Source: Chiloscyllium plagiosum
Lineage: Eukaryota
Direction: 5' to 3'
Assembly (NCBI RefSeq): GCF_004010195.1
Contig: NC_057757.1
Coordinates: forward strand, 2,735,813-2,789,647
DNA length: 53,835 bases
In this document: piece after piece, positions 917 to 50,696 of the stretch
How positions within the stretch are numbered: position 1 is the first letter of the stretch
Layout: every line of letters starts with the position of its first letter
The notes under the pieces: generated by a model
The model's database searches: none
Told to the model about the DNA's origin: nothing
What the model saw: only the letters and a program-made list of their open reading frames with translations
Made by a program: the position numbers and the translations under genes

Positions 917-951
917 CACTAGCTTTCGGAGCGACGCTCCTTCGTCAGGTG
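917..951 (-). ncRNA. Minimal hammerhead ribozyme motif (family B)
   Basis: Minus strand reads CAC-CUGACGA-A-GGAGC-GUC-GCUCC-GAAA-GCUA-GUG: core boxes, stem II and stem I CAC/GUG. Confidence 0.75.
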
Positions 952-1381
952 GCTGTGGAGAATAAGATCGCAAGACACCACAAAAGTTTACAGTGTGATG
1001 AAACTGAAATTATATATTGAAAGAGACCTGGGCTGTTTGTTAAATTTCTCATCTTTCACAATGACCATGTTAGTTTTAGTTCTTTCCCAGAACTTTCTTA
1101 AAATTAACATTCTCAAGTGAACTTTAACAATAGGTGCCATGTCGGCCCAGATAATGTATTGAAGGTGTGAGCTTCCCTGCGTGAGGCTGTCTGTGCCCCA
1201 ATGGTCAGACTGATTCCACTCCAAAAAAGGGATTTACAGAATCTTACGTGGATTCATGCAGTTTTTGAGCAAAATAAAATGTAACTCTGCAATACAAATT
1301 CAACCCACAAACTTATATGTGTGTGTGTGTGGGGGGGGGGGGGGTGTCTGAATGTCTGTGAGAGGGTGTGTGAGTGTAGGT

Positions 1382-1890
1382 GTCGAGAGTGTGGTGCTTG
1401 AAAAGCACAGCAGGTCAGGCAGCATCTGAGGAGCAGGAGGATCGACGTTTCAGGCATAAGCCCTCCATCAGGAATAAGGCTTGTGGGTTGGGGCTGAGAA
1501 TTAAATGGGAGGGGTGTGGGGTTGGGGGGAGGTAGCTGGGAAAGTGATAGGTGAGGGAGAAGGTGATAGGTCAGAGGGAGCAGTGATGGACGGGGCCCGG
1601 AGGTTGGTGCCGAGTTGGAGGCTTGGGGGACTGATAATGTGGGGGGGGGGAAATGAGGAAGCTGCTGAAACCCACATTTATCCTGTGTGGTTGCAGGAAT
1701 ACGAGGCGTTCCTTCTCCAGGCATCGGGTAGGAACGGTTTAGCGGTGTAGGAGGAGGCCCAGGACCTGCATATCCTTGACGGAGTGGGAGTGGGAGTTGA
1801 AGTGTTCAGCCACGGGGCGGTGGGTGCAGGTGTCTCTGAAATGATTCACAAGAAGACAGCCTGTCTCTCTGATGTAGAGGAGACTTTGAG
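1382..1890 (-). mobile_element. Penelope-like element 3' fragment (family A)
   Basis: Similar to 49553-50030 and 10825-11280, which carry the RRLEEERLIFRLGTLQPHG tail; degenerate hammerhead at about 1441-1475. Confidence 0.75.
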
Positions 1891-2096
1891 CATATGAGAG
1901 AGAGCTTGTGTATGAGAGAGGGTCTACGTGAGTGTATGGGTCTGTAGGAGTGCGTGTGTGTGAATGAGAGAGAGAATGTGTAGTGCAATGGGGTCAACCT
2001 GTAGTGTGACATGAACCCAAGGTCCTAGTTGAGGCCATCCCCATGGGTACCGACCTTGGCTATCAGCCTCTGCTCGGCCATTTTGCTTTGTTGCCT

Positions 2097-2275
2097 GTGG
2101 AGAGAGAGAACAGAGTTAATGTTTCGGGTCCGGTGACCCTTCCTCGGAACCTGACCTGAAACGTTCACTCTGATTTCTCTCCACAGACGTTGCCAGACAA
2201 TGCTGAGCTTTTCCAGCGATTTCTGGTTTTGTCTCTGATTTACAGCATCTGCAGCTCTCTCGGTTTTTACTTTTT
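2097..2275. mobile_element. Short fold-back Penelope-derived element (family D) with a hammerhead remnant
   Basis: Minus strand 2115-2150 reads GUU-CCGAGGA-A-GGGUC-ACCG-GACCC-GAAAC-AUU-AAC; inverted arms; related pieces at about 19045-19125 and 19690-19790. Confidence 0.55.
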
Positions 2276-2409
2276 GGAAACGCAGGAAGGATGCTCCCGA
2301 CGGATTGGGGGAGTCCAGAAACAGGGAGAGGGTGGGGTCACAGTCTTCAGGACCGAGATGAGGAGAAATGTCTTCACCTGAAGAGTGTGGAAAATTTTGT
2401 TGTTCTGGG

Positions 2410-2670
2410 GGACACAGTTTCAAATCCTGCCAGGGCAGATGGTAGAATTCAGTAAAAAATCTGGAATTAAGAGTCTAAGGATGACCGTGAATCAATTATT
2501 GGAAAACCCCCATCTGGTTCACTGACGTCTTTACCTGGTCGGGCCTACACATAACTCCAGACCCAATGTGATTTGACCCTTAACAGCCCACCGGTCAATG
2601 GGGGAATGGGCAACAAATGCTGGGCCAGCCCGGGACACCCAAACCCCATGGATGAATTAAAATAAAAATT
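2410..2670 (+). mobile_element. Deu-domain SINE (SacSINE1/AmnSINE-like)
   Basis: CCCATCTGGTTCACT...TTACCTGGTCGGGCCTACACATAACTCCAGACCC core; related copies at about 25545-25815(-), 40860-41040(+), 48715-48810(+). Confidence 0.6.
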
Positions 2671-3364
2671 CTCTACCACAGAAAGTGGGTGAGACCAAAC
2701 ACTGAATGTCTTCAAGAAGGAGGCTGACACAGCGCTCAGAGCTAAAGGGTGTAGGGGAGAAAGCTGGGATAGGGGACTGAGTTGGATGATCATCTTGTGG
2801 CATGGGGTAGTAATGTCCCTCGTCTCTAGCCCAGGAGGCCTGTGTTCGAGGTCCATTTGGTGCTCCAGAGGTGTGTCTGAACAGACTGATCGAAAAAAGA
2901 TCAACTTTGAGATGCTGTTGTTACTTTCACACATAAACAGTGTGAAACTACCATGGCTTCAAGAGGTTATTTTGTCTTTTTTCTTGAAGAAAGGTTTTAA
3001 GACAGAGATACAGAGCTGTCTACTTGAATCCAGTAAACAGCTTGTGAGGCCTTGGGATTTTGTTTTTAGAAGCTGGAACAATAGAAGCAGCCTGAATGGG
3101 TGGGGTCAAGCTCTCTCAGAACCTGGATATTTTAGCTTCAGTTTTTCAGTGGCAGTTGCTGGGAGCTGGGAAGGTTTGGGAGCTGCAGCACATCTCTCCC
3201 TGCTCCTCTCTCTTTCTCTCCCTCTCCCTCTCAGAGTTTCCTCTTGATGGTTTTCCTCCTGGACTAGAGAATTGCCTATGTGACAATCTATTTTACTGAA
3301 TTTGCCATTGCCAAGGGTGCATTTATGGGATGTTACTCTATTGGAACAGTTACTGTTTCATCAT

Positions 3365-3945
3365 TAAATCAGACCCCATTGCATCATGGTAGCCCACAAA
3401 CCTACCAACACACTTAAACAGCGACTCATGAACCTAAAGGATCTATTAGATACTACAAGCAAAACTAACATCATTTATAAATTGCCATGCAAGAACAGTA
3501 AAAAAACACTAAATTGGACAAATAAGCAAGAACCTTGCCAGCAGGGTACACAAACACCAACTGGCCACAAAAGACACAACCCACTATCACTAGTTTCTAT
3601 ACATACAGACAAAGAAGGACACCACTTTCACCAGGACAACACACACATCCTAGGACAGGCGAAACAAAAACATGAACAAGAATTCTTAGAGGCATGGCAT
3701 TCTAACCAGAACTCCATCAATAAGCACATCGATTTAGACCCTATCTACCTTCTCTTGAAAGAAAAACCAGAAATGACATCACACACCTTAAGAAACTAAG
3801 ACCTATAAACAGAGAGGTGGGACATACCACCAGCACTTCACCAGAGACTCTCACTGATGATGTTACCTAGTCATGGTGACGAAACACCTGAAAATTAACC
3901 CTCCAGCTCAGCGAGCTAAGTTACAGGCTTAGCTACAAATCTTCT
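3365..3945 (+). mobile_element. Penelope-like element (family C, Penelope/Poseidon-like) GIY-YIG remnant
   Basis: ORF 3386-3799 contains NIIYKLPCK and EQEFLEAWHSNQNSINKHIDLDPIY; hammerhead motif follows at 3851-3891. Confidence 0.8.
3851..3891 (+). ncRNA. Minimal hammerhead motif (family C), cleavage triplet mutated
   Basis: UCA-CUGAUGA-U-GUUACC-UAGUCAU-GGUGAC-GAAAC-ACC-UGA; stem I UCA/UGA. Confidence 0.6.
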
Positions 3946-5967: not shown

Positions 5968-6540
5968 AATAGATAGGGTGAACAGCAAAGGCTTTTTCCC
6001 CTAGGATGGGGCAAGTTCAAAATTAGGGAGCATATTTTTGAGGGGAGAAAGATTTAAACAGGACACGAGGGGCAACTTTTTTTAAAAACACAGTGGTTCG
6101 TGTGTGGAATCAACTTCCTGAGGATGTGGGTACGGTTACAACATTTTAAAAGACATTTAGATAAGTTCGTGAATAAGAAAGGTTTGGAGGGATATGGGTC
6201 AAGATTAGAGTGGTGCTGGAAAAGCACAGCAGGTCTGGCAGCATCCGAGGAGCAGGAGAATCGACGTTTTGGGCAAAAGCCCTTCATTAAGAATACAGCT
6301 CTATTCCTGATGAAGGGCTTTTGCCTGAGAACGTCGATTCTCCTGCTCCTCGGATGCTGCCTGACCTGCTGTGCTTTTCCAGCACCACTGTAATCTAGAA
6401 TCTGGTTTCCAGCATCTGCCATCTTCACTTTCACCTTGGAGGGACATGGGCCAGGAGCAGGCAGGTGGGATTGGTTTGGGATTATGGTCAGCATGGACTG
6501 GTTGGGCCGAAGGGTCTGTTTCGGTGCTGGATGACTCCAA
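5968..6540 (+). mobile_element. CR1-type LINE 3' end interrupted by a fold-back element
   Basis: Same 3' motifs as 4270-4680; split at 6202-6435. Confidence 0.8.
6202..6435. mobile_element. Fold-back mini Penelope-like element (family A) with 18-bp TSD
   Basis: About 95-bp inverted arms; TSD TTGGAGGGA(T/C)ATGGG(T/C)CA at 6184-6201 and 6436-6453; CTGATGA box at 6307. Confidence 0.85.
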
Positions 6541-10824: not shown

Positions 10825-12100
10825 TAGGAGAAAGTGAGGAGTGCAGATGGAGCTCAAAGTCAAGAGTGTAGTGTTGGACAAGCACGGCAGGTCAGGCAGC
10901 ATCCGAGCAGCAGGAGAATCGACATTTCAGGCACAGGTCCTTCATCAGGATGAAGCTTGTGGGTTGAGGCTGGGTTTGGAGGGGAAAGGTAGCTGGGAAA
11001 TTGATAGGTGTATGAAAGAGGGGGGAGAAGGTGATAAGTCAGAGGAGGGACTGGTCTGGAGGGCGGTGCGGAGCTGGAGGCTCGAGACTGGGATAATGTG
11101 GGGGAAGGGAAAATGGGGAAGCTGTTGAAACCCACATTTATCCCATGGGGTTGCAGGGTTCCAAGGCAGAATATGAGGTGGTGTTCTTCCTCCAGGCGTT
11201 AGGTGGTAATGGTTTGGCCTTGGAGGCGGCCCAGGACCTGCATGTCCTTGATGGAGTAGGCGGGGGAGTTGAAATGTTCAGCCCTCCGCGATCGTGGAGG
11301 GAGGCGGCCATCTGGGACTTTGAGGTGGAATTGGTCATCTGGGAACAGATTCGGCGAAGTTGGAGGACTTGGGAATAAGGGATGGCGTTTTCACGCGAGG
11401 TAGCTGTGGGAGTCAGTGGTCTTGTAGTATACATCTGTGGTTAGTCGGTCACCAGAGACAATGATGGAGAGGACCAGGAAGGGGAGGGAGGTTTCCAAGA
11501 TGGTCCAGGTGAACTTGAGGTCTGGGCGGAAGGTGTTGGTAAAGTTGATGTACAGTTCAACCTCCTTGTGGGAATACGAGGCGGCACTGATACAGTTAGT
11601 GTAGCAGAGGAACAGGTGGGGGTGGTGCCAGTGTAACTGGACTGTTCCACATATCCAACAAACAGGCAGACATAGCTGGGTCCTCTGCGGGAGCCCATGG
11701 CTACCTCTTTCATTTGGAGGAAGTGGGAGGATTGGAAGGAGAAGTTGTTGAAGGTGAGGACCAGTTCAGCCAGGTGGATGAGGGCATCGGTGGGAGGGTA
11801 CTAGTTGGGACAGCATGAGTGGAAGAAATGGAGGGCTTAGAGATTGATGTGTACAGGGACTGGATGCCCATGTGAAGACGGGGAAACGAAAATCTTGGAG
11901 GAGGTGAAGGGCATGTGTGCTGTCACAAATGTAGGTGGGGAGTTCCTGAGCTAAGGGGGACAGGACAGTGTCGAGGCAGGAAGAGAGGAGTTCAGTGGGA
12001 CAGGCGCAGGCTGAGACAATGGGTGGACTGGGGCAGTCAGGTTTTGAATATTCTGAAGGAGGTAGAATCAGGTAGTGTGGGGTTCACGGACAGGGAGGTT
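10825..12100 (-). mobile_element. Penelope-like element (family A), degraded RT plus endonuclease tail
   Basis: VAMGSRRGPSYVCLFVGYVEQS (RT motif) and AIPYSQVLQLRRICS; frameshifted. Confidence 0.85.
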
Positions 12101-14887: not shown

Positions 14888-15100
14888 CTGGAAATGTGTT
14901 GCTGGAAAAGCGCAGCAGGTCAGGCAGCATCCAGGGAACAGGAGAATCAACGTTTCGGGCATAAGCCCTTCTTCAGGAAGAAGGGCTTATGCCCGAAACG
15001 TCGATTCTCCTGTTCCCTGGATGCTGCCTGACCTGCTGCGCTTTTCCAGCAACACATTTCCAGCTCTGATCTCCAGCATCTGCAGACCTCACTTTCTCCT
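14888..15100. mobile_element. Fold-back mini Penelope-like element (family A) with 15-bp TSD
   Basis: Near-perfect inverted arms of about 85 bp; TSD CATTGAAGTTAACAG at 14873-14887 and 15101-15115. Confidence 0.9.
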
Positions 15101-21305: not shown

Positions 21306-21809
21306 AGGACACACTGCTTCCATGAATAGGAAGAGGCAGAGCATAAAAGCCATAGGTTATGCTAAACCCTTGGCCGAATTACAGGCTCCGTTCCAGCAAT
21401 CGTTACATTTGTATTCAATCTTTGGGCGGACTTGTGGGAGTTTTCGAGGGGCAGACATTGGGTAATGTAGAGGAGATGCTGGAAGGAAGTGACATGGGGG
21501 GGGCATTGATTGCCCGGAGAAGGGGCTGAGGATTGTCTGTGTCTACGTCTCCCTCTCCCTCCCACCCTTCGCGCTGGGCTCAAGCAGGATCTGGTATCTA
21601 GTGGCGGTCTGAGCCAAGGGGTTTAATCCTTGGAGTGGGACGGGCAGGAGCCAGCTACAACTTGCAGCTGACTCTCTGACCTGCGCAGATGAGAACTGAG
21701 GGAACTGTCTCACAGGGAGGGATTTAGGGGCCCGAACTGAGGAGGGAAGGGCGGGCTGCTTTAAAAACCCAAAACCAAGAAGAAACCCGACCCCGCGGCA
21801 CAGACTAAC

Positions 21810-21927
21810 CTTGATTGTTTGTCTCCAGCACGTGGGACATGCAGAGAAACCGCTCCAGATCCAGGTCCTGGTGGTGGAAGTACCAATCCTCCACGACCTC
21901 CTCGTACTGCTCCAGCATCTTCTCACA
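21810..21927 (-). CDS. CNPY4: Canopy homolog 4, exon 5 (118 nt)
   Basis: CEKMLEQYEEVVEDWYFHHQDLDLERFLCMSHVLETNNQ; CAG acceptor, G|GTTAGT donor. Confidence 0.95.
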
Positions 21928-23223
21928 CTGAGAGAAGGAACACCCACAGATGTTGGGCTGGCTTGGGTCGAATTGCGCTGGACAGTGTTCCATTATAAAT
22001 GCAATGCTCAACTTTTTTTTTTCGAGATTGAAACCTCTGCCCTCGTTTTCCTGCCCCACCCCTTCTCGATGGCTCGCTTTCTTCTCTCGATATTCCCCCC
22101 CCCCCCCCGCCTTTCTGCTTTCATAACACGATCGATCACCATCCGCGCACCTCCTCTGGGTGGGTTTTCTCCGGGTGCTCTGGTTTCCTCCCACAGTCCA
22201 AAGATATACGGGTCAGGCGAATTGGCCATGTTAAATTGCCCGTAGTTAGGTGCAGGGGTAAATGTAGGGGAATGGGTCTGGGTAAGTGCGCTTCAGCGGG
22301 TCGGTGTGGACTTGTTGGGCCGAAGGGCCTGTTTCCACACTATAAGTAATCATAGAAAGCATGGGAACTCAACCATCTGCAAATTTCCCTCCAAGCCATA
22401 CACTCTCCTGATTTAGAAATATATCGGCATTCCTTCTGTATCAATGGATCAAAGTCCCAGATTTCCATTCCTAACAGCACAGTGGCTGCCCCTACTCATC
22501 AAGCACTGCAGCAGTTCAAGAGGCAGCTCACCAACATTTCCTCGAGGGAATTCAGGGTTGGACAACAAATGCTGCTCTATACAGTGACATTCACATCACA
22601 TGAACGAATATATTTTAAAAAGTAGTTTACACATGCACTCGTGCTGTTATACCCATGGCTCATTTTTAACTTGTACTGTGCCCAAATTACATATGTTTGG
22701 TTCAAGGTATCATCATAGTACACATTATATCAAAGGTTTATTTCATTAAACCAACATTGTGGGCACAATGTGCATTTTAAATTTATGATACGTATCCGTG
22801 TATATGTTCAATGAATACAGATGAGTTTATTCTGCACATTGTTATTTTTGTAGTATTCACATCAGTTATATAGATTGATAAATTCTTGATGTCACAAGGA
22901 ATTAAGGGCTACGGGGAGAATGCGGGTAAGTGGAGTTGAAATGCCCATCAGCCATGATTGAATGGCGGAGTGGACTCGATGGGCCGAATGGCCTCATTTC
23001 CGCTCCTATGTCTTATGGTCTAAGTCCCTAACTCTGCCCCTACGTCTGGTGCGAAGGACCCCGATCAGAGTGCTGGCACTGGGAGGGAGGGGGAAAGCCC
23101 AGGGTCACACGTAAAGATCAGTTGGCGGCTCCAGGCTCCGCTAACACCTTCAGTGAACGGCTGCTGATAACAGACGCAGAGGGGTGGACAAACAATGCAG
23201 TCCAGCAGAGGGGCCAGGCTTAC

Positions 23224-29215: not shown

Positions 29216-29342
29216 GACGTGTTGTACTTGATCTTTCGCTTGCGTTTCCCATTGTCCAGCACTTCTCCGAGCTCCAACACCTCCTTGGAACGTTTCGTCT
29301 TGTCTAGAGCAGACTGCAGCTCCAGTGTGAGAAACTTGCACA
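29216..29342 (-). CDS. CNPY4: Canopy homolog 4, exon 2 (127 nt)
   Basis: VCKFLTLELQSALDKTKRSKEVLELGEVLDNGKRKRKIKYNTS; AAG acceptor, TC|GTAAGT donor. Confidence 0.95.
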
Positions 29343-32289: not shown

Positions 32290-32400
32290 TTGTGGTACAG
32301 TGCTAGTGTCCTTACCTCTAGGGCAGGAGGGCCAATTTCAAGTCTCACTTGCACCTGAGGCGTATGATAACATCCCTGAAAAGGTTGACTAAAAAAATAT
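32290..32400 (+). mobile_element. Short tRNA-derived SINE (second family)
   Basis: GTGGTACAGTGCTAGTGTCC...TTCAAGTCTC; similar copies at about 2797-2900, 37180-37280, 47938-48045. Confidence 0.55.
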
Positions 32401-33227
32401 GAAAAGTGATATTTGGACTTGAATGCACTTGTCCTCCATTTTTAAGTGCACAAGGCAACTGGAAGGACTGTACGGGTCACAACGAGGAGTCCATTGTAAA
32501 GTGTATGACTTCAACCTCAGGCGACTGTGTGGAGTTTGCACATTCTCCCACATGTCTGTGTGGGTTTCCTCCAGGTGCTCTGGTTTCCTCCCACAGTCCA
32601 AAGATGTGCAGGTTAGGGTGGATTGGCCGTGCTGAATTGTCCCATAGTGCCCAGGGATGTGCAGGTTAGGGTGGGTTGGCCGTGCTTATTTGTCCCATAG
32701 TGCCCAGGGATGTGCAGGTTAGGGTGGATTGGTCAGGGGAAATATAAAAGTAATAGAAATACATCTGGGTGGAATACTCTCCAGAGGGTTGGTGTGGACT
32801 TGTTGGGCCAAATGGCCTGTTTCCACACTGTAGCGTTTCTATGACTTGGATCAGTCAGTTTTGCTGCTTCGTTCAGAACGTTGGGAATTAAACCCAAGTC
32901 TTCAGAACATTTGCCAAAACCTCTGGATTAAGATGCAATTCCTCTTAAAACTCAACCACTGAATCAACACAGCTTCTCCAAAGACATACCTTTCTTTGAG
33001 ATTTTTATTCAAACTACAACAACGCAGTACTCAATCCTGAGGTCCCAAATTTCCTTGTAGAGTTATACAACACGGAAACAGACCCTTCAGCTCCACTCGT
33101 CCATGTCGACCGAATACCCTAAACTAACTTAGTCCCCGTTTACCAGCAATCTATCCATCTAAACCCTTCCTATTTCAGTTAAAAATCACACATCATCAGG
33201 TTATAGTCCAACAGGTTTAATTGGAAG

Positions 33228-33262
33228 CACTAGCTTTCGGAGCAACGCTCCTTCATCAGGTG
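33228..33262 (-). ncRNA. Minimal hammerhead ribozyme motif (family B)
   Basis: CAC-CUGAUGA-A-GGAGC-GUU-GCUCC-GAAA-GCUA-GUG. Confidence 0.75.
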
Positions 33263-35597
33263 GTAGCAGAGGGCTCAATCCTAACACAGAATTTATAGCA
33301 AAAATTTACAGTGTGAGGTAATTGAAATTATATATTGAAAAATTGATTGTCTGTTGAGTCTTTCATCTGTTTGAATACCGTGATAGTTTCACTTCTTTCA
33401 TGTGTAAATCACAAAACTTTTTATTAAAAAGTTGCATTCTCAGGTTAGCTGTTAACAATGGTGATAGCTAGACAATACGTTGAAGGTGTTAGCCCCCTGT
33501 GTTCTCTGTCTATGCCATGATGTTTAGATTGATTCTAATCTAAAAAGTGAGATAACAGAGTTTTACATGAATTCATGCAGTTTTTGAGCAAAGTACAATG
33601 TAACCCTGCAAGTACAAATTCACCCCACAAAATATATGTGTGCATGTGGGTCTTTGTCTGTGACTGTGTGTTCTTGTCAAGGTTTGGGGGTTGTGAGTGT
33701 GAGAAAGTGTATGTGTGTGTGTAGCAAGTGTAGAGTGTCTTAAGTCTGTGAGGGGGTGTATGTGTGAGTGTGTGTCTGTAAGGGTGTGTGCGCGCGTCTG
33801 TGTATATGTGTGTCCGTGTGTATAGGAGTGTCTGTGTGTGTGTAGGAGTGTCTGTGTGTGTGCGCAGTGCAATGGTGATCACCTGCAATGTGATATGAAC
33901 CCAAGGTCCCGGTTGAGGCCCTCCCTATGGGTACCGAACTTAGCTATCAGCCTCTGCTCGGCCACTTTTCGCTGCTGCCTGTCCCGAAGTCCACCTTGGA
34001 GGATGGTCACCTGAAGGTCCGAGGCTGAATGTCCTGAACCACTGAAGTGTTCCCCAACTGGGAGGGAACCCTCCTGTCTGTTGATTGTTGTGCGGTGCCC
34101 ATTCATCTGTTGTCGTGGCCTTTGCTCGGTTCCCCCAATGTACCATGCCTCTGGGCATCCTTGCCTGCAACGTATAAGATAGACAACGTTGGCTGAGTCA
34201 CATGAGTACCTGCCATATACAAGGTGGGAGGTGTCCCCACATGTAATGGTAGTATCTACGTCCACACTCTGACACTTCTTGCAGTGCCTACCGTGACAGG
34301 GTTGTATGGAGTTGTCCTGAGAGCTGGGCAGTTCGCTACAAACAATGATCTGTTTGAGGTTTCGCAGTTGTTTAAAGACAAGTAGTGGATGTGTGGGGAA
34401 GGTCTTGGCGAGTGCTCATCCTCATTGATAATGTGTTGCAGGGCACGAAGAACATGGTGTAATTTTTCAGTGCCTGGGACGTACTGAACAACGAAGGGTA
34501 CCCTGTCAGTTGCAGCACGTGTCTGGCTCTTGAGGAGGTCATTACTGTTCCTTGCTGTGGCACGTCGGAAATGGCAGTCGATGAGTTGAGCATCGTACCC
34601 AATTCTTGTGAGGTCATCCTTGAGTACTTCCAGGTGTCCATCATGTTCCTCCTCCTCTGAGCAGATCCGGTGTATGCGTAGGGCTTGTCCATAGGGAATG
34701 GCTGTTTTAATATGTTTTGGGTGGAAGCTGGAGAACTATAGCATTGGGAGGGTGTCTGTGGGTTTGCGGTAGAGTGTGGTGCTGAGGTTTCCGTCCTTGA
34801 TGGAGACGCAGGTGTACATTGGGGAAACCGAGCAAAGGCTGTGACAACGGATGAATGGGCACCGCACAACCACCAACAGACAGGAGGGTTCCCTCCCAGT
34901 TGGGGAACACTTCAGTGGTCCAGGACATTCAGCCTCAGACCTTCAGGTGACCATCCTCCAAGGTGGACTTCGGGACAGGCAGCAGAGGAAAGTGGCCGAG
35001 CAAAGGCTGATAGCTAAGTTCGGTACCCATAGGGAGGGCCTCAACCGGGACCTTGGGTTCATATCACATTGCAGGTGATCACCATTGCATTGCGCACACA
35101 CACACACCCTTTCAGACACACACTCGCACGTACACCCCCTCACAGACTTAAGACAATCTACACACACACACTTTCTCACACTCACAACCCCCAATCCAGA
35201 CAGACAAAGACCCACATGCACACATATATTTTGTGGGGTGAATTTGTACTTGCAGGGTTACATTGTACTTTGCTCAAAAACGGCATGAATTCATGTAAAA
35301 CTCCGTTTTCTCACTTTTTAGATTAGAATCAATCTAAACATCATGGCATAGACAGAGAACACAGGGGGCCAACACCTTCAACGTATTGTCTAGCTATCAC
35401 TCATTATTAACAGCTAACCCGAGAACGCAACTTTTTAAAAAAAGGTTTTGTGATTTACACATGAAAGAAGTGGAACTATCACGGTATTCTAACAGATGAA
35501 AGACTTAACAGACAATCAATTTTTCAATGTATAATTTCAGTTGCATCACTGTAAATTTTTGCTATAAATTCTGTGTGATGATCGAGCCCTCCACTAT

Positions 35598-35632
35598 CAC
35601 CTGATGAAGGAGTGTTGCTCCGAAAGCTAGTG
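35598..35632 (+). ncRNA. Minimal hammerhead ribozyme motif (family B)
   Basis: CAC-CUGAUGA-A-GGAGU-GUU-GCUCC-GAAA-GCUA-GUG. Confidence 0.75.
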
Positions 35633-35784
35633 TGCTTCCAATTAAACCTGTTGGACTATAAGCTGGTGTTGTGAGATTTTTTTAAACTTTATGCTCCCCA
35701 GTCCAACACCAGCATCTCCAAATTGTGCTTCCTATTCACATACCCACCCAGACGCCTTTTAAAGATGTTGTCATTGCACCGAGC

Positions 35785-36102
35785 TTAGATTAGATTACTT
35801 ACAGTGTGGAAACAGGCCCTTCGGCCCAACACGTACACACCGACCCGCCGAAGAGCAACCCACCCAGACCCATTCCCCTACATTTACCCCTTCACCTAAC
35901 ACTACGGGCAATTTAGCGTGGCCAATTCACCCAACCTGCACATTTGTAGACTGTGGGAGGAAACCCGAGCACCCGGAGGAAACCCACGCAGACACGGGGA
36001 GAATGTGCAAACTCCACACTGAGGGTTATAGATGCCGGAGGCGGGATTTGAACCCGGGTCTCTGGCGCTGTGAGGCAGCAGCGCTAACCACCGTGCCACC
36101 AC
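35785..36102 (-). mobile_element. Full-length V-SINE (HE1-like)
   Basis: Reverse complement of the 5638-5936 type. Confidence 0.9.
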
Positions 36103-36509
36103 TTTCCTTCACGAGAGCTGAGAAACAAAAGCAACCCAGGCCGCTCGCCCCATCCTGGCAGTGCCAGCCCATTGTCCAGTGCCACCAGCCCCTTCCCTTT
36201 CTGTCTCCCCCAGGAAGTGGGTAATATTTTACTTTGGGATAACATGCCCAATCCAGCTCACACAAGGTTGGGAGAGAGGGGAAAAGAGGGGCAGATAAAG
36301 GGAGACACCAGTTGGCCAACATGGGGAGGTTGGCTCTTGCCCCATGGACCGCCGCCATCTTGGATGCCCAGTTGCTATGGGCAACCAGGTCTGACCTTCC
36401 CAACCCCCTCCCATCCCCTCCCCCAACAGACTTTCCACCGTCCCCCAAATATCAAGATCTGCTCAATGGCGCGGGGGCGGGAGGGGTTAGGAGAGCCTCT
36501 CCCCTTTAC

Positions 36510-36603
36510 CTTCGCACTTGGTGGGCAGCCTCTCCCCCTCCTCCTCCGCTGCCGCACTGCCAGCGAGCAGCGGGACAAAGAGCAAGAGCAACGGTCGCAG
36601 CAT
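36510..36603 (-). CDS. CNPY4: Canopy homolog 4, exon 1 (signal peptide)
   Basis: MLRPLLLLFVPLLAGSAAAEEEGERLPTKCE with G|GTAAAG donor; spliced CDS totals 708 nt (235 aa plus stop) and resembles human CNPY4 (ERLPSKCEVCK). Confidence 0.95.
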
Positions 36604-36609
36604 CACCCC

Positions 36610-37170
36610 CACCACCGTCCGCGGAGCCCGGCTCGAGCGTGCGGGCCAGCAGCCAATCACGCGGACCCGCCTCCCCGCGCGCCGCCCGCTCCGGCCAATC
36701 AGGCGAAGGCCTGGCCCGCGTGGGCACCGCAGCGGCCTGTCACGGAGACGCGTCCCCACGTGGGGGTGCCGCCCCCAGCCAACCAAAGCCACACGTGGGG
36801 CGCCGCCCCCAGCCATTCATAGCCACACGTGGGGCACCGCCCCCAAACAACCTTCAGCTAATCACAGCGCCACGTCCTCACATGAAGCTCCCGCCCCTTT
36901 AACTAAACGAGCAAGCGCGCCCCGTCGAGTGGCGGCGGTTCCAGCCAATCAGATGCGTCGTCCGCCCCCATGTCTGATCCCTTCAGCCAATTAGGATGTG
37001 GGTCGCGCCCCCAAGTGATACCCAACCACTTCAGCCAATCATGGGGGCACGTCCTGAGGGTGTCCCTCCAGATCCTAACCAATCACGCCGGCTTCTCGCC
37101 GTATGTGCACCGCCCAGTGTCCACTCTCGGCTCCCCATTGGCTGCTGCTCTAATTTGAACTTCCCGCCCG
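36610..37170 (-). promoter_or_regulatory. CNPY4 CpG-island promoter with multiple CCAAT, GC and CACGTG boxes
   Basis: CCAAT at about 36653, 36695, 36945, 36988, 37035, 37079; CACGTG at 36757, 36792, 36826. Confidence 0.8.
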
Positions 37171-41421: not shown

Positions 41422-41577
41422 ATGGCCAATGAGAAGAAACTGAAGATTAGCAACACGCTGCTTCCCACCGAGTCGATGAAAGTGATCGCCGAATCCATAG
41501 GAATCTCCCAGCTTTCGGAGGAAACTTGCCAAAGCTTGACTGAGGAGGTCAGCTACAGGATCAAAGAGCTGGCCCAG
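41422..41577 (+). CDS. TAF6: TAF6 first coding exon (histone-fold N-terminus)
   Basis: [52 protein letters not shown]; acceptor AG at 41399-41400, CAG|GTGAGC donor. Confidence 0.95.
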
Positions 41578-44225
41578 GTGAGCTTCCCTCTGTTTTAAGC
41601 GCATTTCTGTCTCACTACCCTGTGTTTGCGAGCGTGCATGCGCCGTGCTTGTGTGCTTGCCCCGTGTTTGTGCACGTGTGTTTTTTTGCAGTGTTTTAGT
41701 CAGCTGTCGCATCACAGAGAAGAGACCCTTTGAGTCTCCATCCCACTATCTACACTAGTCCCACTTCCTCATGAGGGGCTCCTGCCTGAGACGTCGATCC
41801 TCCTGCTCCTCAGATGCTGACCTGCTGTATTTTTCCAGCACCACTCTAATCTTGATTCTGATCTCCAGCAGTCCTCACTTTCGCCAAAGCCTTGAATGTT
41901 GTCTTACCCCCAGTGCTCATCCCGTTGCAAGCCTAATCCCTGATGAAGGGCTTATGCCCGAGACGTCGATCCTCCTGCGCCTCAGATGCTGCCTGACCGG
42001 CTGTGCTTTTCCAGCACCACACTCTCGACCCCTCCCATTGCAGTAAAACTTTGTTTTTATTAGCACCTTTTGAACAGGCACCCTTGAAACACTGGCAAAA
42101 ATCATACACCTCTTGTTTCATGAAGTTCGCTGTATTATTCAATCCAATTATTACACGTTTTAAAATTAATCTATCTTGCTGTAAATGTCCTCATTCAATC
42201 AAGCGACCACTCAAGTTGATTTAATTTCGAGTCACTTTCTCCTCAAATGCCACCATCTCTGAGTAGTCAGGCGAGGGTGAGAGTTAGAAGGCTCTCTGTC
42301 AGTAGGTTTTATTTAAGGTGAAGTTGCATTCTTATTTAAGAGATCTATGCTGTAAACAAAGTGTAACAGTGATGTGCACACCCCCTGCATTATGTTTCTG
42401 TTAGTTAGTGAGTGTTTTTACACGTGGACTCTTGGTTATCCACTCCCGGTCCCATAGTTACTGGATAATAAAAAATCCGCTGCAGTTTTATTTCAAACTG
42501 TTGTGAGGTTTCCTGTCTCAACTACCCTTCAGGGCAGTGCGCTCCAGACCCCTGCTACCCTCTGGGTGAGAAAGGTTATCCTGAAATCCCCTGAAAACCA
42601 CCTGTCTTTCACTGTAAGTCCTGCCTCTGTCTTGTGTGGGTGTATATGTACCATCCTGCACTTGTCTGGTTGTGCGGGATCGAGAGTGTGGCGCTGGAAA
42701 AGCACAGCAAATCAGGCAGCAACGGAGGAGCAGGAGAATCGCTGTTTCGTGCATAAGCCTTTCCTGATGAAGGGTCGACGTAACAAGGAATACGAGCGTC
42801 TCTTACCTCAAAGGAGCCAGAACTTGCATTTGCACAGCGCCTGTAATAACATAGTGAAACGCTCGAAGGAGCAGAATTGGACTAAATTTGACTTTGCCCA
42901 CTTAAGGACGAGGAGCACTGGAGGCGTGATGCTGTTAGAGGCAGAATGATAGGAATCGAGAGGCCAGAATAGGTGGAGTTTGGTCATCACTGAGGGCTGT
43001 GGGAGGTCACATAGAAAGGGAGAGTCCAAGCCCTTGGTGTATGTGCGTGAGCGTTAAACTGTTGGTGATGACAGGCTTTCTCCATCAGTCGTTGACCTGC
43101 TGCAGTCCTGTGTGCTATAGGGACACCCACTCAGCGCCGTTAGCGAGGGAGTTCCTGGATTCTGACTCACTGACGCTGAAGCAACGTCGGATACGTTTCC
43201 AAGTCGGGATGGTGAGGGGGCTCGGAGGGGAACTTGCAGGGGGCTGGTGTCCCTGTGTATCTGCTGCCCTCCTCTCTCTCTCTATGTGCTAGAGGTCCCA
43301 GGTTTGGAAAGCTGCAGTCAGAGGAGCCTTATTGAATTTCAGCAGGTGCACCTTGGAGCTAAGGAGCCGAGGGCACAGCCTGAGAATAATGAACGGAGAG
43401 AAGGAGAAACATCTTCAGCCAGAGAGTGGGGAATCGATGCAATTCCCTGCCACTGAAGGCTGTGGAAGCCAGGTCACTGGGTATATTTAAGACGGAGATA
43501 GATAGGTTTCTGGGTATCAAGGGGTTTGAGGGTTATGGGAGAATGGGGTTGAGAAACGTATCAACTATGATTGAATGGCGGGGCAGACTCGATGGGCTGA
43601 ATGGCCTAGTTTCTGCTCCTACGTCTTGTAGATGGCCTGCAGTGCCGCTGCTGAGTGTTGGTGAATGTTAAAGCTGGTCGATGGGGGCTGAATCCAGCGT
43701 CTGAGTTAACTTGCCTTTCACACGTTCTGTCATTCCAGTTTCAGACGGGCCTTACCAGGGAGCTGGACGTGGCCCGTCTGGCTAAAGGGATTGAGGGGTA
43801 CGCAGAGAAAGTGGGAGTGGGATACTGAGGTTGCATGGTCAGCCATGTTTGTGTTGCATGGTGGGGCAGGCTGGAAGGGCTGAATGGCCTACTCCTGCAT
43901 CCGTTTTCAATGTTAACTCTGTACCGGAGGTGGGGGGGGGGCTAATGGGAGGATAGGAAAATCTCGTGTGGTGCTGGAAAAGCACAGCAGGTCAGGCAGC
44001 ATCCGAGGAGCAGGAGGATCGACGTTTCGGCCATAAGCCCTTCCCTGACGAAGCTCCTGTTCCTCGGATGCTGCCTGGCCTGCTGTGCTTTTCCAGCACC
44101 ACACTCTTGACTCTGATCTCCAGCACCTCACTTACTCCCGATGGGATAACCAGCACTGGGGAGTCCTCATGGCCCGGTTAAAGGGGCCTTTTTATCGAAT
44201 GTGGTTTTTGTGTCTCCCCACTCAG

Positions 44226-44312
44226 GATGCCCTGAAGTACATGTACCATGGCAAACGGAAGAAGCTAACGACGGTGGACATCGACTGTGCTCTGAAGCTG
44301 AAAAATGTGGAG
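44226..44312 (+). CDS. TAF6: TAF6 second coding exon (87 nt)
   Basis: [32 protein letters not shown] acceptor, GAG|GTTTGC donor. Confidence 0.95.
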
Positions 44313-44898
44313 GTTTGCCAATCCCCTACATCCCTTCCCACTGCTTAACCACCCCCCTCACCCCAAACTAAGGAGAAACGATTTACCCAGGTATTAGGGC
44401 CTTTGATCTCAGAGTGTAGCTGGGGACAGGGTGGGATGGTGAGGCTGATGCTCATCATCGCGTTAATGCCTTGGCGACCGAGGGTGCAAATGCTGCTGGA
44501 GGGATTTAAACAAACGCAACAGAATCTCACATTAAAACCTCACCAAGGTGATCCCGGCCATCACCGATTGCTAGTAAAAAGCAGCACCCCTTCCCCCCCC
44601 CCCCCCCCCCCCCCTCCCCTGCAGATCTCCTTTTGGGGGTGGGGGGGGGAAACCTGCCATCTTTATCCAGTCTGCCTTCCATGGGGCTCCACGCTGACCC
44701 AAAGCAGCCCAGGCACGCCACTCCGTGGATACTGACAAATACTGGCCATATCAGCACTCCCCAGGTAGAAAATAGGATGAAGATCCACGGTGAGAGGCTT
44801 CAGTCTCAGGCTGTGAAGGAGGCTGTCTAATTCCTCCGGCCTGCCTCAGGGTTTGGAGAGAGCTAGGCCTTGACCTTTCTTTTCCTTGTCACGAGTAC

Positions 44899-46255
44899 GG
44901 GGCGGCATGGCGGCTCAGTGGTTAGCGCTGCTGACTCACAGCGCCAGGGACGCGGGTTCAATCCCACCCTCGGGTGACTGGCTGCATGGATTCTCCAGTG
45001 TCTGCGTGGGTTTCCTCCAGATACTCCGGTTTCCTCCCACAGTCCAAACATGTCCAAGTTAGGGTGGATTGGCCGTGCTAAGTGTCCCATAGTGTCCAGG
45101 GATGTGCAGGTTAGTGTGAATTGGCCGTGCTAAATTGTCCCATAGTGCCCAGGGATGTGCAGGTTAGTGTGAATTGGCCGTGCTAAATTGTCCCATAGTG
45201 CCCAGGGATGTGCAGGTTAGTGTGAATTGGCCGTGCTAAATTGTCCCATAGTGCCCAGGGATGTGCAGGTTAGTGTGAATTGGCCGTGCTAAATTGTCCC
45301 ATAGTGCCCAGGGATGTGCAGGTTAGTGTGAATTGGCCGTGCTAAATTGTCCCATAGTGCCCAGGGATGTGCAGGTTAGTGTGAATTGGCCGTGCTAAAT
45401 TGTCCCATAGTGCCCAGGGATGTGCAGGTTAGTGTGAATTGGCCGTGCTAAATTGTCCCATAGTGCCCAGGGATGTGCAGGTTAGTGTGAATTGGCCGTG
45501 CTAAATTGTCCCATAGTGCCCAGGGATGTGCAGGTTAGTGTGAATTGGCCGTGCTAAATTGTCCCATAGTGTCCAGGGATGTGCAGGTTAGTGTGAATTG
45601 GCCGTGCTAAATTGTCCCATAGTGTCCAGGGATGTGCAGGTTAGTGTNNNNNNNNNNNNNNNNNNNNNNNNNNNNNNNNNNNNNNNNNNNNNNNNNNNNN
45701 NNNNNNNNNNNNNNNNNNNNNNNNNNNNNNNNNNNNNNNNNNNNNNNNNNNNNNNNNNNNNNNNNNNNNNNNNNNNNNNNNNNNNNNNNNNNNNNNNNNN
45801 NNNNNNNNNNNNNNNNNNNNNNNNNNNNNNNNNNNNNNNNNNNNNNNNNNNNNNNNNNNNNNNNNNNNNNNNNNNNNNNNNNNNNNNNNNNNNNNNNNNN
45901 NNNNNNNNNNNNNNNNNNNNNNNNNNNNNNNNNNNNNNNNNNNNNNNNNNNNNNNNNNNNNNNNNNNNNNNNNNNNNNNNNNNNNNNNNNNNNNNNNNNN
46001 NNNNNNNNNNNNNNNNNNNNNNNNNNNNNNNNNNNNNNNNNNNNNNNNNNNNNNNNNNNNNNNNNNNNNNNNNNNNNNNNNNNNNNNNNNNCGTGCTAAA
46101 TTGTCCCATAGTACCCAGGGGTGTGCAGGTTATGGTGGATTGGCCATGGGAAATGCCGGGGTAGGGCGGTGGGTCTGGATGGGATGGTCTGCAGAAGGTC
46201 AGTGTTGACTCAGTGGACCAAATGGGCAGCTTCCACTCTGTAGGAATTCTATTCT
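44899..46255 (+). repeat. V-SINE with internal 53-bp array spanning a 444-N gap (45648-46091)
   Basis: At least 10 units of GGATGTGCAGGTTAGTGTGAATTGGCCGTGCTAAATTGTCCCATAGTGCCCAG. Confidence 0.9.
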
Positions 46256-47630
46256 ATCCTCTTTATATAATTGTGCTCATGAATGCCCCGCTGGAATCTT
46301 CCTCCACCTCTGTTTGTGGTGGCGTGTTCCAGATCCTGATAACTCCAAATTAAAAGAACAGTTTCGTGCCCTCTGCGCCATCAAACAGAAGGTTCTAAAA
46401 CGCTGTGTGCTCTGCGTATCTGTGGGAATGCCACTATCTGCAAGGCACAAGTCACGAGTGTCATGGAATATTCCCCATTTGCCCTGGAAAGGTGCAGCTC
46501 CAGCAACACCGGAAGATTGACACGATCTGGAGCTAAGCAAGGCCTGCTTAATTGGCAGCATATCCGCCACTTTCAAAGCTCCCCCTCCCCATTACCAATG
46601 GGCACTCGCAGCACTGTGTCCCATCTACAAGATGCACTGCAGCAATTTGCCAGGGCTTCTCAGACAGCACCTTCCATACCCACGACCTCTACCATCGAGA
46701 AGGACCAGGGCAGCCAATATGTGGGAACGTCAACCCCTGCACGTTCCCCACTCCCCATCCCGACTTGGAAATATATCGGCAGTTCCCTCAGCGTGGCTGG
46801 GTCAGGATCCTGAAACCCCCTCCCTAACGGCACTGTGTGGGTGTCCTTACACCACATGGGACTGCGGCGGTTCCAGAGGGAAGCTCACCCCCCCCCACCC
46901 CACCCTCTGTCAATAAAAAATAAACGCTGGGCAGTCCATTGATGTGGAAATTCCAAGCCAGCTGAATGCGCAAGCTCCTCCATTAATTTTCCCATTGATC
47001 TGCTCTTGAGAATAATCCCAGACTGTCCGATCTCTCCACAGCAGCTGGAGTCTATCATAAAGTCATACAGTACGGAAACAGACCGTTCGGCCCAGCCCGT
47101 CCATGCTAACCAGGTTGCCAAAGCTGATCCAGTCCCATTTGCCAGTATTTGGCCCATATATCCCTAAACCCTTCCTATTCATATAAGATGTGCAGGTTAG
47201 GATGGATTAGCCATTCTAAATTGCCCATAGTGTTAGGTGCATTAGTCAGAGGGAAATGGGCCTGGATGGGTTACTCTTCAGAGGGTCGGTGTGGGCTGAA
47301 GGGCCTGTTTCCACACTGCAGGGAATCTAATCTAATCATATACCCATCCAGATGCCTTTTAACTGCTGTAACTGTACCAGCCTCCACCTCTTCCTCTGGC
47401 AGCTCATTCCATACACGCACCACCCTCTATGTGAAAAAGTTCCCCCTCAGGTCCTTTATAAAGCTGTCCCCTTCATACAGAGGGCATAGCTTAATCATCT
47501 GCCACAATCCCTGGTATAGAGACGCCAAGGCAAACAGGTTTATTGAAGGTGGAGGGGACAGGGTGATTAACAATGGCAGGGCCCCCTGAACCCTAACTCT
47601 AACCCTATAACCAGCTGCCTCTCTCTGCAG

Positions 47631-47784
47631 CCGCTGTACGGGTTCCACGCCCAGGAGTTCATTCCCTTCCGGTACGCCAGCGGGGGTGGGCGCGAGCTCC
47701 ACTTCTACGAGGAGAAGGAGGTGGACCTCAGCGACATCATCAACACGCCCCTCCCGCGGGTGCCGTTGGACGTCTGTCTCAAAG
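47631..47784 (+). CDS. TAF6: TAF6 third coding exon (154 nt)
   Basis: [56 protein letters not shown] acceptor, G|GTAAAC donor. Confidence 0.97.
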
Positions 47785-48282
47785 GTAAACAGTGAGCCCT
47801 CGTCTCAAACCCTCCCTGTCAACCCCCCCCCCCCCCTCCTGTGGGCCCTCTGGAAAGGACCAGGCTAACGCTGCAGCGTCAGATAACACCAACAAATCCG
47901 TCACTTTGTAAATGCGGAGTTTGCGTCACGAGGGCTCTTCGTGGCGCAGTGGTAGTGTCCCTATCCCTGAGCCAGGAGGCTTGGCTTCAGGTTCCACCTG
48001 CTGTCAAGGCGCGTTTGAGCTTTTCTAAGTACGTTGATTTAAAAAAAACCAAATGCCATGGTGTTGCTGAGAGAGGAGACTTGCTGTTAAATGTGTTTTG
48101 TCTTGCACACTTCAGGATAGGTACAAGAATGCAACTTCTCACAGGGAACATCAGTTTACACAGCCCTCGGTGCTGAACAGTTACCCTGTCCACACTCTGG
48201 ATGGTTGGGGCATTGTCACAGAGATTACATCATCCCCCTTTTGTTCAGTACTTCTACTGTGCACTTTCTGCAGCAATATCCC

Positions 48283-48590
48283 TGGGGTGGCACGGTGGCT
48301 CAGTGGTTGGCACTGCTGCCTCACAGCGCCAGGGACCCGGGTTCGATACCAGCCTTGGGGGACCGTCTGTGTGCTGTGTGGAGTTTGCACATTCTCCCCG
48401 TGTCTGCTTGGGTTTCCTCCCACAGTCCAAAGATGTGCAGGTTAGGGTGGATTGGCTGTGCTAAATTTCCCACGAGGTGCATTAGTCAGGGGTAAATATG
48501 GGGGATGGGTCTGGTGGGTCACTCTTCGGAGGGTCGGTATGGACTTGTTGGGCCGAAGGGCCTGTTTCCACACTGTAGGGAATCTAATCA
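48283..48590 (+). mobile_element. V-SINE (HE1-like)
   Basis: tRNA-like head, V-domain, GAATCTAATC tail. Confidence 0.85.
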
Positions 48591-49118
48591 TTCTGACCGA
48601 TTTGGCATTCTTGCGTCTGTCCCAGTGGGTGTGAGAGGAAACCCCATGGCAACCATTTATTAATAGTTTAATAGGGAATGAACAGCTGCAATTAAAATAT
48701 CTGTGCTGTTCTCTGGTACCCATCTGGGGGGAGAAGAATCTGCTGTCCTAACCCCTACCTGGTTTGCATGTGACTCCAGACCCACGGCCAACATGAGTGC
48801 CTGTGACCCCCCCGGGATAGCGTCACAAAGTGTGGCGCTGGAAAAGCTCAGCTGGTCAGGCCGTATCCGCGGAGCAGGAGAGTTCAGGCATAAGCAGGTC
48901 ATCAGGAATCTGAGATAGCAGCCTAGCAAGCTGCTCAGCTGTAGGTAGCTCTCTGACAGCCGTTTGTGGTGAGTGAGGGGTGGGTAACGACTGGTGCCCT
49001 TGCAGCTCAAGGTAGTGGGGGTGGGGGATGGAGGGGTTGGAGTGTGGGTGCAGTTGGAGGATGGAATTTAATTGAGTGTAACTGTCAATCTCTCTCTCTC
49101 TCTCTCTTTGCTTCTCAG

Positions 49119-49175
49119 CTCACTGGCTCAGTATAGAGGGAATCCAACCTGCCATCCCAGAGAATCCACCGCCCG
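49119..49175 (+). CDS. TAF6: TAF6 fourth coding exon (57 nt); downstream exons not found in the window
   Basis: (A)[18 protein letters not shown]; long pyrimidine tract plus CAG acceptor, G|GTAAGC donor. Confidence 0.97.
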
Positions 49176-49552
49176 GTAAGCTTCGGCAATGTCTGCTGTC
49201 TCATTTCTGATCCCAACGGTGTTCCACAGGGATATATACTGTCTCCATTTCTGTCTGTAATCAGTGATCTAGATGAAAACGTAGAAGGCCTGGTTAGTGT
49301 GTTTGCAGATGGCGCCAAGGTTGGTGGTACAGTGGGCAGGGAAGAACAGTATCCAGGATTACAAAGTCATCATGACCAGTTGGGTTAATGGGCGGAGGAG
49401 TGGCGAATGGAGTTTAATTTGGATAAATGGGAGGGCAGAACTTACCCAATTAAAAGTAGGGTTCTGGGGAGTGTTGTACAACAGAAAGACCTGGGGATTG
49501 AGGTACATAGTTATTTGAAATTTACATTATAGTAGACATCGGTTAAGAAGAT

Positions 49553-50030
49553 GTCAAGAGTGTGTTGCTGGAAAAGTACAGCAGGTCTGGCAGCATCCGA
49601 GGAGCAGGAGGATTGACATTTCGGGCATATTCCCTTCATCAGGAATGAGGCTCCTGGGCCAGGGGCTGAGAGATAAATGGGGAGGGGGTGGGGATACGAT
49701 GGGAGGTAGCTGAGAAAGCGATAGGTGGATGAAGGTGAGGGAGGAATTGGTAGGTCAAAGGGGGCAGTGATGGACGGGTCCGGAGGGCGGTGCTGAGTTG
49801 GAGGCTTGGGACTGGGATAATATGGGGGGGAGGGGAAATGAGGAAGCTGCTGAAATCCACATTGATCCCGTGTGGTTGCAGGGTCCCAAGGCGGAATATG
49901 AGGCGTTCCTCCTCCAGGCGTCGGGCGGTAGCGGTTTGGCGGGGGAGGAGGCCCAGGACCTGCATGTCCTTGACGGAGTGGGAGGGGGGTGTTGAAGTGT
50001 TCAGCCACAGGGCAGTGGGGTTGGTGGGCG
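49553..50030 (-). mobile_element. Penelope-like element (family A) 3' end
   Basis: PVAEHFN...MQVLGLL...RRLEEERLIFRLGTLQPHGINVDF; hammerhead remnant at about 49611-49645. Confidence 0.85.
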
Positions 50031-50319
50031 TGAAGCCTCATTGAAGAAGTTGTCCTTCTCTCTCTAGAAAAAAAAGACTTTCTCCTAGCTGGTTACAAAG
50101 ATGTTTAGTACATTTGCCTTCATTGCTCCTACCTGTTGAGATGGTGGTGTTGGACCAGGGTGGGCAAGGCCAGAAGTCTCATAACGCCAACAGGTTTATT
50201 TGAAATCACCTGAGGAAAGGGCAGTACTCTGAAAGCTTGTGATTTCAAGTAAACCTATTGGACTGTAACCTGGTGTTGTCAGACCTGTTGAGTATAGGTG
50301 TGTATCCAATTCTGTCCAG

Positions 50320-50528
50320 ATTAGAGTGGTGCTGGAAATGCACAGCAGGTCAGGCAACATCCGAGGAGCAGGAGAATTGACGTTTCTGCCTCTATTCCTG
50401 ATGAAGGGCTTTTGCCCGAAACGTTGATTCTCCTGCTCCTCGGATGCTGCCTGACCTGCTGTGCTTTTCCAGCACCACTCTAATCTAGACTCTGGTTTCC
50501 AGCATCTGCAGTCCTTGTTTTTACCCAG
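50320..50528. mobile_element. Fold-back mini Penelope-like element with 15-bp TSD and hammerhead core
   Basis: TSD TCCAATTCTGTCCAG at 50305-50319 and 50529-50543; CUGAUGA-A-GGGC-UUUU-GCCC-GAAAC-GUU at 50398-50425. Confidence 0.9.
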
Positions 50529-50656
50529 TCCAATTCTGTCCAGCCATGCGATAGGAAGGATATTATTATACTGAAGAGGGTTCAAGGTTTGTGCGAAGAT
50601 TTGTAGCTCGGGTGCTCGTTGTTGTGGTTCTGTTCGCCGAGCTGGGAATTTGTGTT

Positions 50657-50696
50657 GCAGACGTTTCGTCCCCTGTCTAGGTGACATCCTCAGTGC
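50657..50696 (-). ncRNA. Minimal hammerhead ribozyme motif (family C) with GUC cleavage triplet
   Basis: GCA-CUGAGGA-U-GUCACC-UAGACA-GGGGAC-GAAAC-GUC-UGC; stem I GCA/UGC. Confidence 0.75.

Follow-up and report, generated by a model that had tools for sequence, protein, structure and literature searches.

Hammerhead-bearing Penelope-like elements of Chiloscyllium plagiosum: copies probably made from capped RNA that the ribozyme left uncut

Minimal hammerhead ribozymes in the terminal repeats of Penelope-like elements (PLEs) are already published, together with their families and their solo and paired copies (PMC4209133). That study describes thousands of copies in fish, coelacanth and frog and reports low cleavage even in dimers, and the role of the hammerhead in endonuclease-positive PLEs has been stated as unclear (PMC8557442). 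For the Poseidon element PAc of Anolis, nicking and extension of both DNA strands are reported, with uncut RNA serving as the main template and no reads ending at the cut (PMC11167929). The pseudo-long terminal repeat (pLTR) of Adineta vaga PLEs has a predicted TATA box and an initiator-like motif (PMC3846280), Drosophila Penelope has a TATA-less internal promoter (PMC2377424), and tails and inverted arms of PLEs have also been described (PMC3846280, PMC8557442). Here we analyze a stretch of 53,835 nucleotides of Chiloscyllium plagiosum (contig NC_057757.1, positions 2,735,813 to 2,789,647), called the window below, and other copies of the elements found in it. Judging by their sequences, at least four families of Penelope-like retrotransposons (A to D) carry hammerhead motifs in their terminal repeats, and we put at roughly two in three the probability that their truncated and head-to-head copies were made from capped RNA that the ribozyme had not cut.

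The layout is shown for family B, in which the TATA box lies at -67 from the predicted cut, the hammerhead at -32..+3, the polyadenylation [poly(A)] signal at +12 and the poly(A) site at +30, with copies ending at about +55 and about +95 and the open reading frame (ORF) starting at about +100. In the window, the hammerheads at 33228 and 35598 sit one in each arm of a single head-to-head insertion, which lies in the host gene CNPY4 and whose arms are 94.6% identical over 874 nt. Its features are as follows.

33181..34152, minus strand: left arm (family B) of this insertion, within intron 1 and in sense to CNPY4
33228..33262, minus strand: family B hammerhead, intact (descriptor scan)
33882..34735, minus strand: remnant of the family B ORF end, with thumb, C-X4-C-XX-C linker (Neptune type) and GIY-YIG-like endonuclease, frameshifted
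34804..35681, plus strand: family B right arm, antisense to CNPY4
35563..35568, plus strand: TATAAA, its first T 30 nt upstream of the putative start (-67 from the cut)
35593..35593, plus strand: position -37, putative transcription start, where short copies elsewhere start
35598..35632, plus strand: family B hammerhead, intact, with the predicted cut at 35629/35630
35641..35646, plus strand: ATTAAA poly(A) signal (AATAAA in other copies)
35659..35660, plus strand: family B poly(A) addition site (+30), from RNA reads mapped to this copy, with a GU-rich tract after it

Copies were found via their tails and then extended upstream against long natural copies, and all positions are given relative to the cut site; the family A junction counts rest on about 1.2 Mb, and family D, with two references, was left out of the 5'-end mapping. 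In family A, 79 of 177 5' ends fell at -38..-28 (7.2 per base) and only 3 at the cut, versus 5.0 expected from the neighboring positions. Family B gave 17 ends at -38..-31 among 48 unselected copies and none at the cut. A second set of 60 further loci, each picked for one intact hammerhead, had 26 of 102 copies starting at -38..-36, and none of the 19 starts that fell between -31 and +27 was at the cut. On these counts, the cut site was rejected as the 5' end of copies. TATAAA is found in 75 of 90 long family B copies. The first T of the box is at -67 in 43 of them and at -69 in 24, where a 2-base indel at the cut site has probably shifted the count, and the A at -37 sits 30 bases past the start of the box in a pyrimidine context like that of the initiator consensus. 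Family B copies starting at this A are preceded by an extra G in seven of eight cases and then in all six from loci fetched after the prediction had been made (p 3e-4), 13/14 in total, or in nine of ten when four palindromic joins, sorted by eye, are set aside (p 5e-5). The template base at that position is C in 66 of 68 long copies. The extra G is likely a copied cap, the explanation given for the extra G at full-length L1 junctions (PMC11702581).

RNA reads bear on where family B transcripts end. On the family B repeat, 2,828 reads aligned with a strand ratio of about 10:1. Poly(A) came directly after position 35658 in 399 of these and after 35661 in another 466, together marking one site at +30, 13 bases past ATTAAA. 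Read depth drops from about 1,300 to 175 past this site, with no step at the cut. Internal priming is unlikely because the 20 bases past the site are GU-rich in 164/164 cases and A-rich in 0/164; the poly(A) signal is kept in 110 of 137 family B copies. Mixed variant letters in the reads suggest that many loci contribute, although the 399 may come from few. An intron that removes the signal was considered and rejected, as no such joint was among those listed in the reads. The 3' ends of family B copies form two classes (85 and 47 of 137 copies), and two sites occur also in families A and C. Priming at the poly(A) tail, as in L1, was discarded, since none of the 137 copies ends at +30; the two classes match the internal start sites and the use of uncut RNA reported in vitro (PMC11167929).

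At one locus (L173), the family B repeat and its tail continue into an ORF start that is 42% identical to residues 1 to 93 of a full-length relative, so the hammerhead stands also at the head of the element RNA. The sequence-only reading, a first inspection of the window, had placed the motifs at PLE 3' ends; the PLE origin stands, given an ORF for reverse transcriptase (RT) upstream and relatives with RT and GIY-YIG domains, but the repeat is not solely a 3' end. Under the preferred account, RNA polymerase II would initiate at -37, and the element's RT would prime in the tail of the 5' repeat and run off the cap, yielding copies of 90 to 140 bp with the extra G. Head-to-head pairs would result when the RT primes at each of the two nicked DNA ends and the cDNAs are joined, and long copies would derive from read-through transcripts that continue past the poly(A) site. 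In active elements, selection would maintain the ribozyme, which would need to form a protein-assisted dimer in order to cut and would do so as a minor or regulatory step; we infer that it is conserved but is not what sets the ends of the copied RNA.

Several observations weigh against this account. The 31 copies of family C have no 5' peak. For family A, the extra G is weak (5/10), and both microhomology of the stems and the use of 11 copies as the reference panel may account for part of the peak. A T precedes 16 of the 17 starts at -36, partly through microhomology and partly without explanation. The RNA evidence comes from one poly(A) single-cell run, of which 2% was read, possibly from a related species. 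Among the positions listed for family B reads there is none at which many molecules start, and the start at -37 is a putative one. Both strands are represented among the family A reads, which have no step at the cut, and the loose ends listed for this family include neither poly(A) nor cut ends, so the layout is shown for family B only. The lack of cut ends does not imply a lack of cleavage, as cut RNA may be degraded, circularized or too short to be seen.

A strand transfer like that of retroviruses would also fit, because the polyadenylated RNA stops at +30 without the tail, yet long copies have it. Short copies would then be failed strong-stop cDNAs, and long ones would follow a jump from the cap to the 3' repeat (-37..+30), the RNA being terminally redundant over 67 nt. 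In keeping with this, long copies end at +55 and +95 (42 and 25 of 70) like short ones (43 and 22 of 67), and 0/137 copies end at +30 with poly(A). However, the G derived from the cap is present at -38 in 0 of 68 long copies, linkage among 49 long copies (r2 up to 0.8) runs through the repeat unbroken, and read-through RNA exists (depth of about 175 versus 1,300) and suffices to account for the long copies. We consider the jump unlikely in this form; one inside a single RNA, with the extra base removed, is possible. The wider picture in which Neptune-type PLEs resemble primitive retroviruses appears just as doubtful: the pLTR would correspond to U3-R-U5, the RT would start near the 5' end, the strong-stop cDNA would copy the cap and jump to the hammerhead-bearing 3' repeat, short copies would be strong-stop inserts without a jump, and stem I would provide family-specific recognition of RNA ends.

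In the rolling-circle model (PMC4209133), the repeats would be cut as a dimer and the unit RNA circularized and copied for more than one round, with short copies as a side product. The invariant core and the stems covarying across families speak for selection on the fold, a 5' end at +1 is not to be expected from circles, and a tandem repeat-ORF junction does exist (L173). The model predicts neither the -37 peak nor the extra G, though, many polyadenylated RNAs are uncut, and catalytic mutants leave insertion in vitro unaffected (PMC11167929), all of which makes it improbable as the source of the copies. A little less probable still is that the 5' peak marks no RNA end but the place where the RT stops, at the upstream edge of a 3'-repeat hammerhead that is folded or bound by protein. 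The peak does lie at the edge of stem I in families A and B and is several bases wide, and microhomology is used at many joins. Such a stop would leave unexplained both the TATA box at its canonical distance and the non-template G, and a stall would be expected on entering the fold rather than after leaving it. Copying of capped, uncut RNA is the account that we retain.

The sequence-only reading had further proposed that intact sense copies could cut host pre-mRNA in two genes of the window.

21808..36610, minus strand: CNPY4-like host gene; intron 1 at about 29350-36510; DUF3456 in four exons
41422..49175, plus strand: TAF6 5' exons, with an intron from 49176 on

Exon mapping agrees with its placement of 33228-33262 in sense within CNPY4 intron 1 and of the motif at 50398 (50395 in our scan) in sense downstream of the TAF6 exon at 49175, which puts it in the TAF6 intron, and both cores are intact. 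The proposed cleavage fared worse. The strand bias it had asked for among intact intronic copies was absent, as was any depletion of the sense strand (66/139 copies, 18/39 intact ones and 6/13 solo intact ones in sense), in a sample of 777 kb from eight spectrin-repeat genes that has low power and excludes strong bias only. Both motifs are predicted to be captured by antisense arms, whose presence the sequence-only reading had missed. In the predicted pre-mRNA fold, 34 of the 35 bases of the hammerhead at 33228-33262 are paired to the antisense arm opposite, which is transcribed first; at 50395, 13 of 34 bases are paired with the upstream antisense arm, and the closing pair of stem I has a predicted probability of 0.0. 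Neither has a compatible same-strand partner nearby; the families at 50207 and 50395 cannot pair in dimer register, and dimer cleavage is itself low (PMC4209133). We regard cleavage of host pre-mRNA as very improbable, and the intronic copies appear to be passengers.

Other properties of these introns were also recorded. In CNPY4 intron 1, both ATTAAA (33216-33221, minus strand) and the downstream site are intact in the sense arm of family B, a candidate intronic poly(A) site that the antisense arm may mask. In the CNPY4 pre-mRNA, the inverted arms at 33181-35681 (874 nt, 94.6%) would pair into a long RNA duplex, which makes them a candidate for A-to-I editing. Exons for the TAF6 C-terminal domain lie on the minus strand about 26 kb to the right of the window (G000:C48:2815429-2816600), in conflict with the 5' exons on the plus strand; probably the contig is misoriented past the gap at 50859-51358, or else there is a second copy.

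A descriptor scan of the window found 13 minimal type I hammerheads with at most one core mismatch and a stem I of at least 2 bp, compared with a mean of 0.17 motifs with at most one core mismatch in 12 dinucleotide shuffles; seven had a perfect core (CUGANGA and GAAA boxes, NUH site) and the shuffles none. The sequence-only reading's claim of a dozen or more intact or decayed motifs was thus borne out, with a motif at each position named and on the strand implied. Its list of ten sites divides into five that are intact (917-951, 33228-33262, 35598-35632, 50395-50428 and 50657-50696) and five decayed, with the core or the palindrome broken; 14946-14979 (minus strand) and 50207-50241 (plus strand) are intact cores beyond that list. 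Besides the two in CNPY4, the window contains the following.

917..951, minus strand: family B hammerhead, intact, inside a long 3' fragment, with AATAAA after it (descriptor scan)
1441..1474, minus strand: family A hammerhead, decayed (A9 to G; descriptor scan)
2115..2150, minus strand: decayed hammerhead of family D (palindrome lost and U4 changed to C)
3368..3796, plus strand: family C endonuclease C-terminus remnant (motifs by eye; no Pfam match)
3851..3891, plus strand: family C hammerhead, decayed (U16.1 to C)
6304..6338, plus strand: family A hammerhead, decayed (one base inserted in GAAA)
10918..10951, minus strand: family A hammerhead, decayed (palindrome lost, stem II mismatch)
14946..14979, minus strand: family A hammerhead, intact core, within a short head-to-head pair
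37665-37699 (minus strand), 37868-37900 (plus strand) and 38777-38810 (plus strand): three more decayed motifs (descriptor scan)
41937..41970, plus strand: family A hammerhead, decayed (GAGA), in the TAF6 intron
49612..50037, minus strand: family A 3' fragment with endonuclease C-terminus remnant and decayed hammerhead (49612-49645)
50207..50241, plus strand: older family B variant, core intact, stem II weak, in sense in the TAF6 intron
50395..50428, plus strand: family A hammerhead, core intact, in sense in the TAF6 intron, its own antisense arm upstream
50657..50696, minus strand: intact hammerhead of family C, with a frame that opens at an ATG where stem II starts and runs through the tail

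The motif at 6304..6338 belongs to a short head-to-head pair whose arms both begin at -36. At 50186-50241, the antisense arm of the copy stops exactly at the cut site, and it has three bases in common with the sense arm's stem I; such a junction is rare, and cleavage or stem I microhomology could account for it. A fifth hammerhead type, with stem I GTC/GAC and a short stem II loop, was seen outside the four families (L149:153-185). Genome wide, the exact family B pattern has 12,070 matches in 3.56 Gb, against 0 for a control pattern. The Rfam covariance models, which the sequence-only reading had proposed as a check, produced 33 matches at E up to 10, none of them to a hammerhead family, the look-alikes being hairpins.

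The family-specific stem I pairs and the ACGU or AGCU palindromes in place of stem III were found as first described. In a sample of 223 motifs rich in family B, the palindrome AGCT or ACGT was present in 200, and the first stem II pair was G-C in 193 and G-T in 28. Among 12 natural rows from families A, C and D, 94% of stem cells were paired, versus 58% after shuffling, and six of seven stem pairs had changed on both sides. The expected covariation of stems I and II between families is therefore present, although its strength is overstated because the rows had passed a pairing filter and three family B rows, shifted by the aligner, were excluded. The sequences support an identification of the motifs as minimal type I hammerheads of PLEs, their catalysis being predicted. 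Stem III cannot close in a monomer. The active dimer is predicted to be 1.9 to 4.9 kcal/mol less stable than two monomers, in line with the low activity reported in PMC4209133, and is not the predicted lowest-energy fold; folds other than the active one are predicted to be more stable than the dimer, a further point to be set against the preferred account. In a dimer, stem I forms between two RNAs, and pairing counts show that families match themselves (3/4/3; 2/4/2 in family A), while cross-family pairing is poor, with partial matches between the two C subfamilies. The family stems may act as a recognition code.

The elements themselves can be classified to some extent. The family B motif lies about 620 nt past the end of an ORF bearing a C-X4-C-XX-C linker and GIY-YIG-like motifs; longer family B copies match RVT_1 (Pfam, E 1.3e-8), and relatives carry PF00078 and PF01541 (RT and GIY-YIG) in one ORF, while Pfam scored no endonuclease in the fragments within the window. 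Neptune and Nematis are distinguished by a CX2-5CxxC linker that separates the RT from the endonuclease (PMC8557442). This linker is present in families B and A (in A by eye), which points to Neptune-type, or Nematis, elements. The closest named protein match is from bamboo shark, at 90% over a fifth of the query. The family C endonuclease end is unlike that of A and B, and an ATG frame starts at stem II. Elements of the Penelope/Poseidon clade lack the linker and have an ORF that begins inside the hammerhead. We take the family C C-terminus (3368..3796) to be Poseidon-like from its motifs, and with its ATG frame family C may be a Poseidon. The GCA/TGC subfamily of C (e.g., the L123-L124 and L134 regions) has TATAAA about 87 nt before the cut site, and one family C copy begins at -58, the start that this predicts. 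No ORF was found for family D, and a frame of 1,542 aa on C101887 was dismissed as no ORF once gap letters were discounted. Several turtle and shark gene models annotated as host genes (P0006-P0008, P0056, P0070 and P0077) contain pieces of the element ORF and would be annotation errors or exonized copies.

In the eight genes, head-to-head pairs hold 96 of the 139 copies. Three family B loci (L009, L192 and L193) have perfect palindromic joins with one unpaired base at the center, as expected if two cap-copied cDNA ends anneal. A retrozyme lacking long terminal repeats (non-LTR retrozyme) was rejected, as there is no direct tandem of the same family among the intact motifs within the window. 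Other repeats of the window are 53-bp tandem arrays on both strands, of up to about 14 units (16813-17430, 20252-21216, 26200-26850, 32529-32850 and 44974-45647), which have grown from the body of a tRNA-headed short interspersed element (SINE), a direct duplication of the SINE head (300 bp, 98% identity, 26039-26638) and a 34-bp tandem array at the window start (1-408).

Retroviral LTRs (U3-R-U5, with minus-strand strong-stop DNA) are ordered as promoter, start, poly(A) site and RT start. Family B has the same order, with no tRNA primer or integrase, and two tests lent no support to a strand transfer of the retroviral kind. The position of the ribozyme inside the segment from start to poly(A) site, which is repeated at both transcript ends, gives exact coordinates by which read-through, circle and strand-transfer models, as well as ribozyme function, become testable. 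Thousands of fossil copies record the ends of the RNA that was copied, and they point to capped, uncut RNA. An effect on the host is more likely through a working poly(A) signal, carried by about 12,000 or more family B copies, than through ribozyme cleavage.

The motifs of the window resemble the minimal hammerheads of metazoan PLE pLTRs (PMC4209133) in being of type I with no true stem III and a palindrome at 15.2-16.2, in the extra base before stem II and the G10.1-C11.1 pair, in the several families per genome, and in copies that are mostly solo or in opposite-strand pairs. They differ in their stems (2 to 3 bp in stem I and 4 to 6 bp in stem II), and the available text of that study names no cartilaginous fish and maps no 5' ends, start or poly(A) site. 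Features of endonuclease-positive PLEs are present, namely, a pLTR, an optional tail of 30 to 40 bp and an inverted truncated copy. As in non-LTR retrozymes (bioRxiv 10.64898/2026.07.22.740005), found in one chondrichthyan, the hammerheads are of type I and derived from PLEs; retrozymes form tandem arrays, whereas the copies here are dispersed, single or head to head. The two 3' ends match the tail signature that is tied to the two internal RT starts of PAc, and the family C frame opens at stem II like the PAc ORF, in contrast to A and B with their Neptune-type linker and to the family B ORF, which starts about 100 nt past the cut (PMC11167929); the available text of that paper mentions neither polyadenylation nor a template switch. 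A search of the literature, outside which lay all supplements and most subscription papers, found no report of a cap G or of a poly(A) site next to the ribozyme. What is added here for family B is a TATA box 30 nt before the start, the extra G and a poly(A) site 30 nt past the cut. Head-to-head arms, junction palindromes and solo pLTRs are shared with the PLE units of Adineta vaga, where the palindromes are ascribed to self-priming on an antisense template (PMC3846280), whereas the extra G found here favors capped sense RNA.

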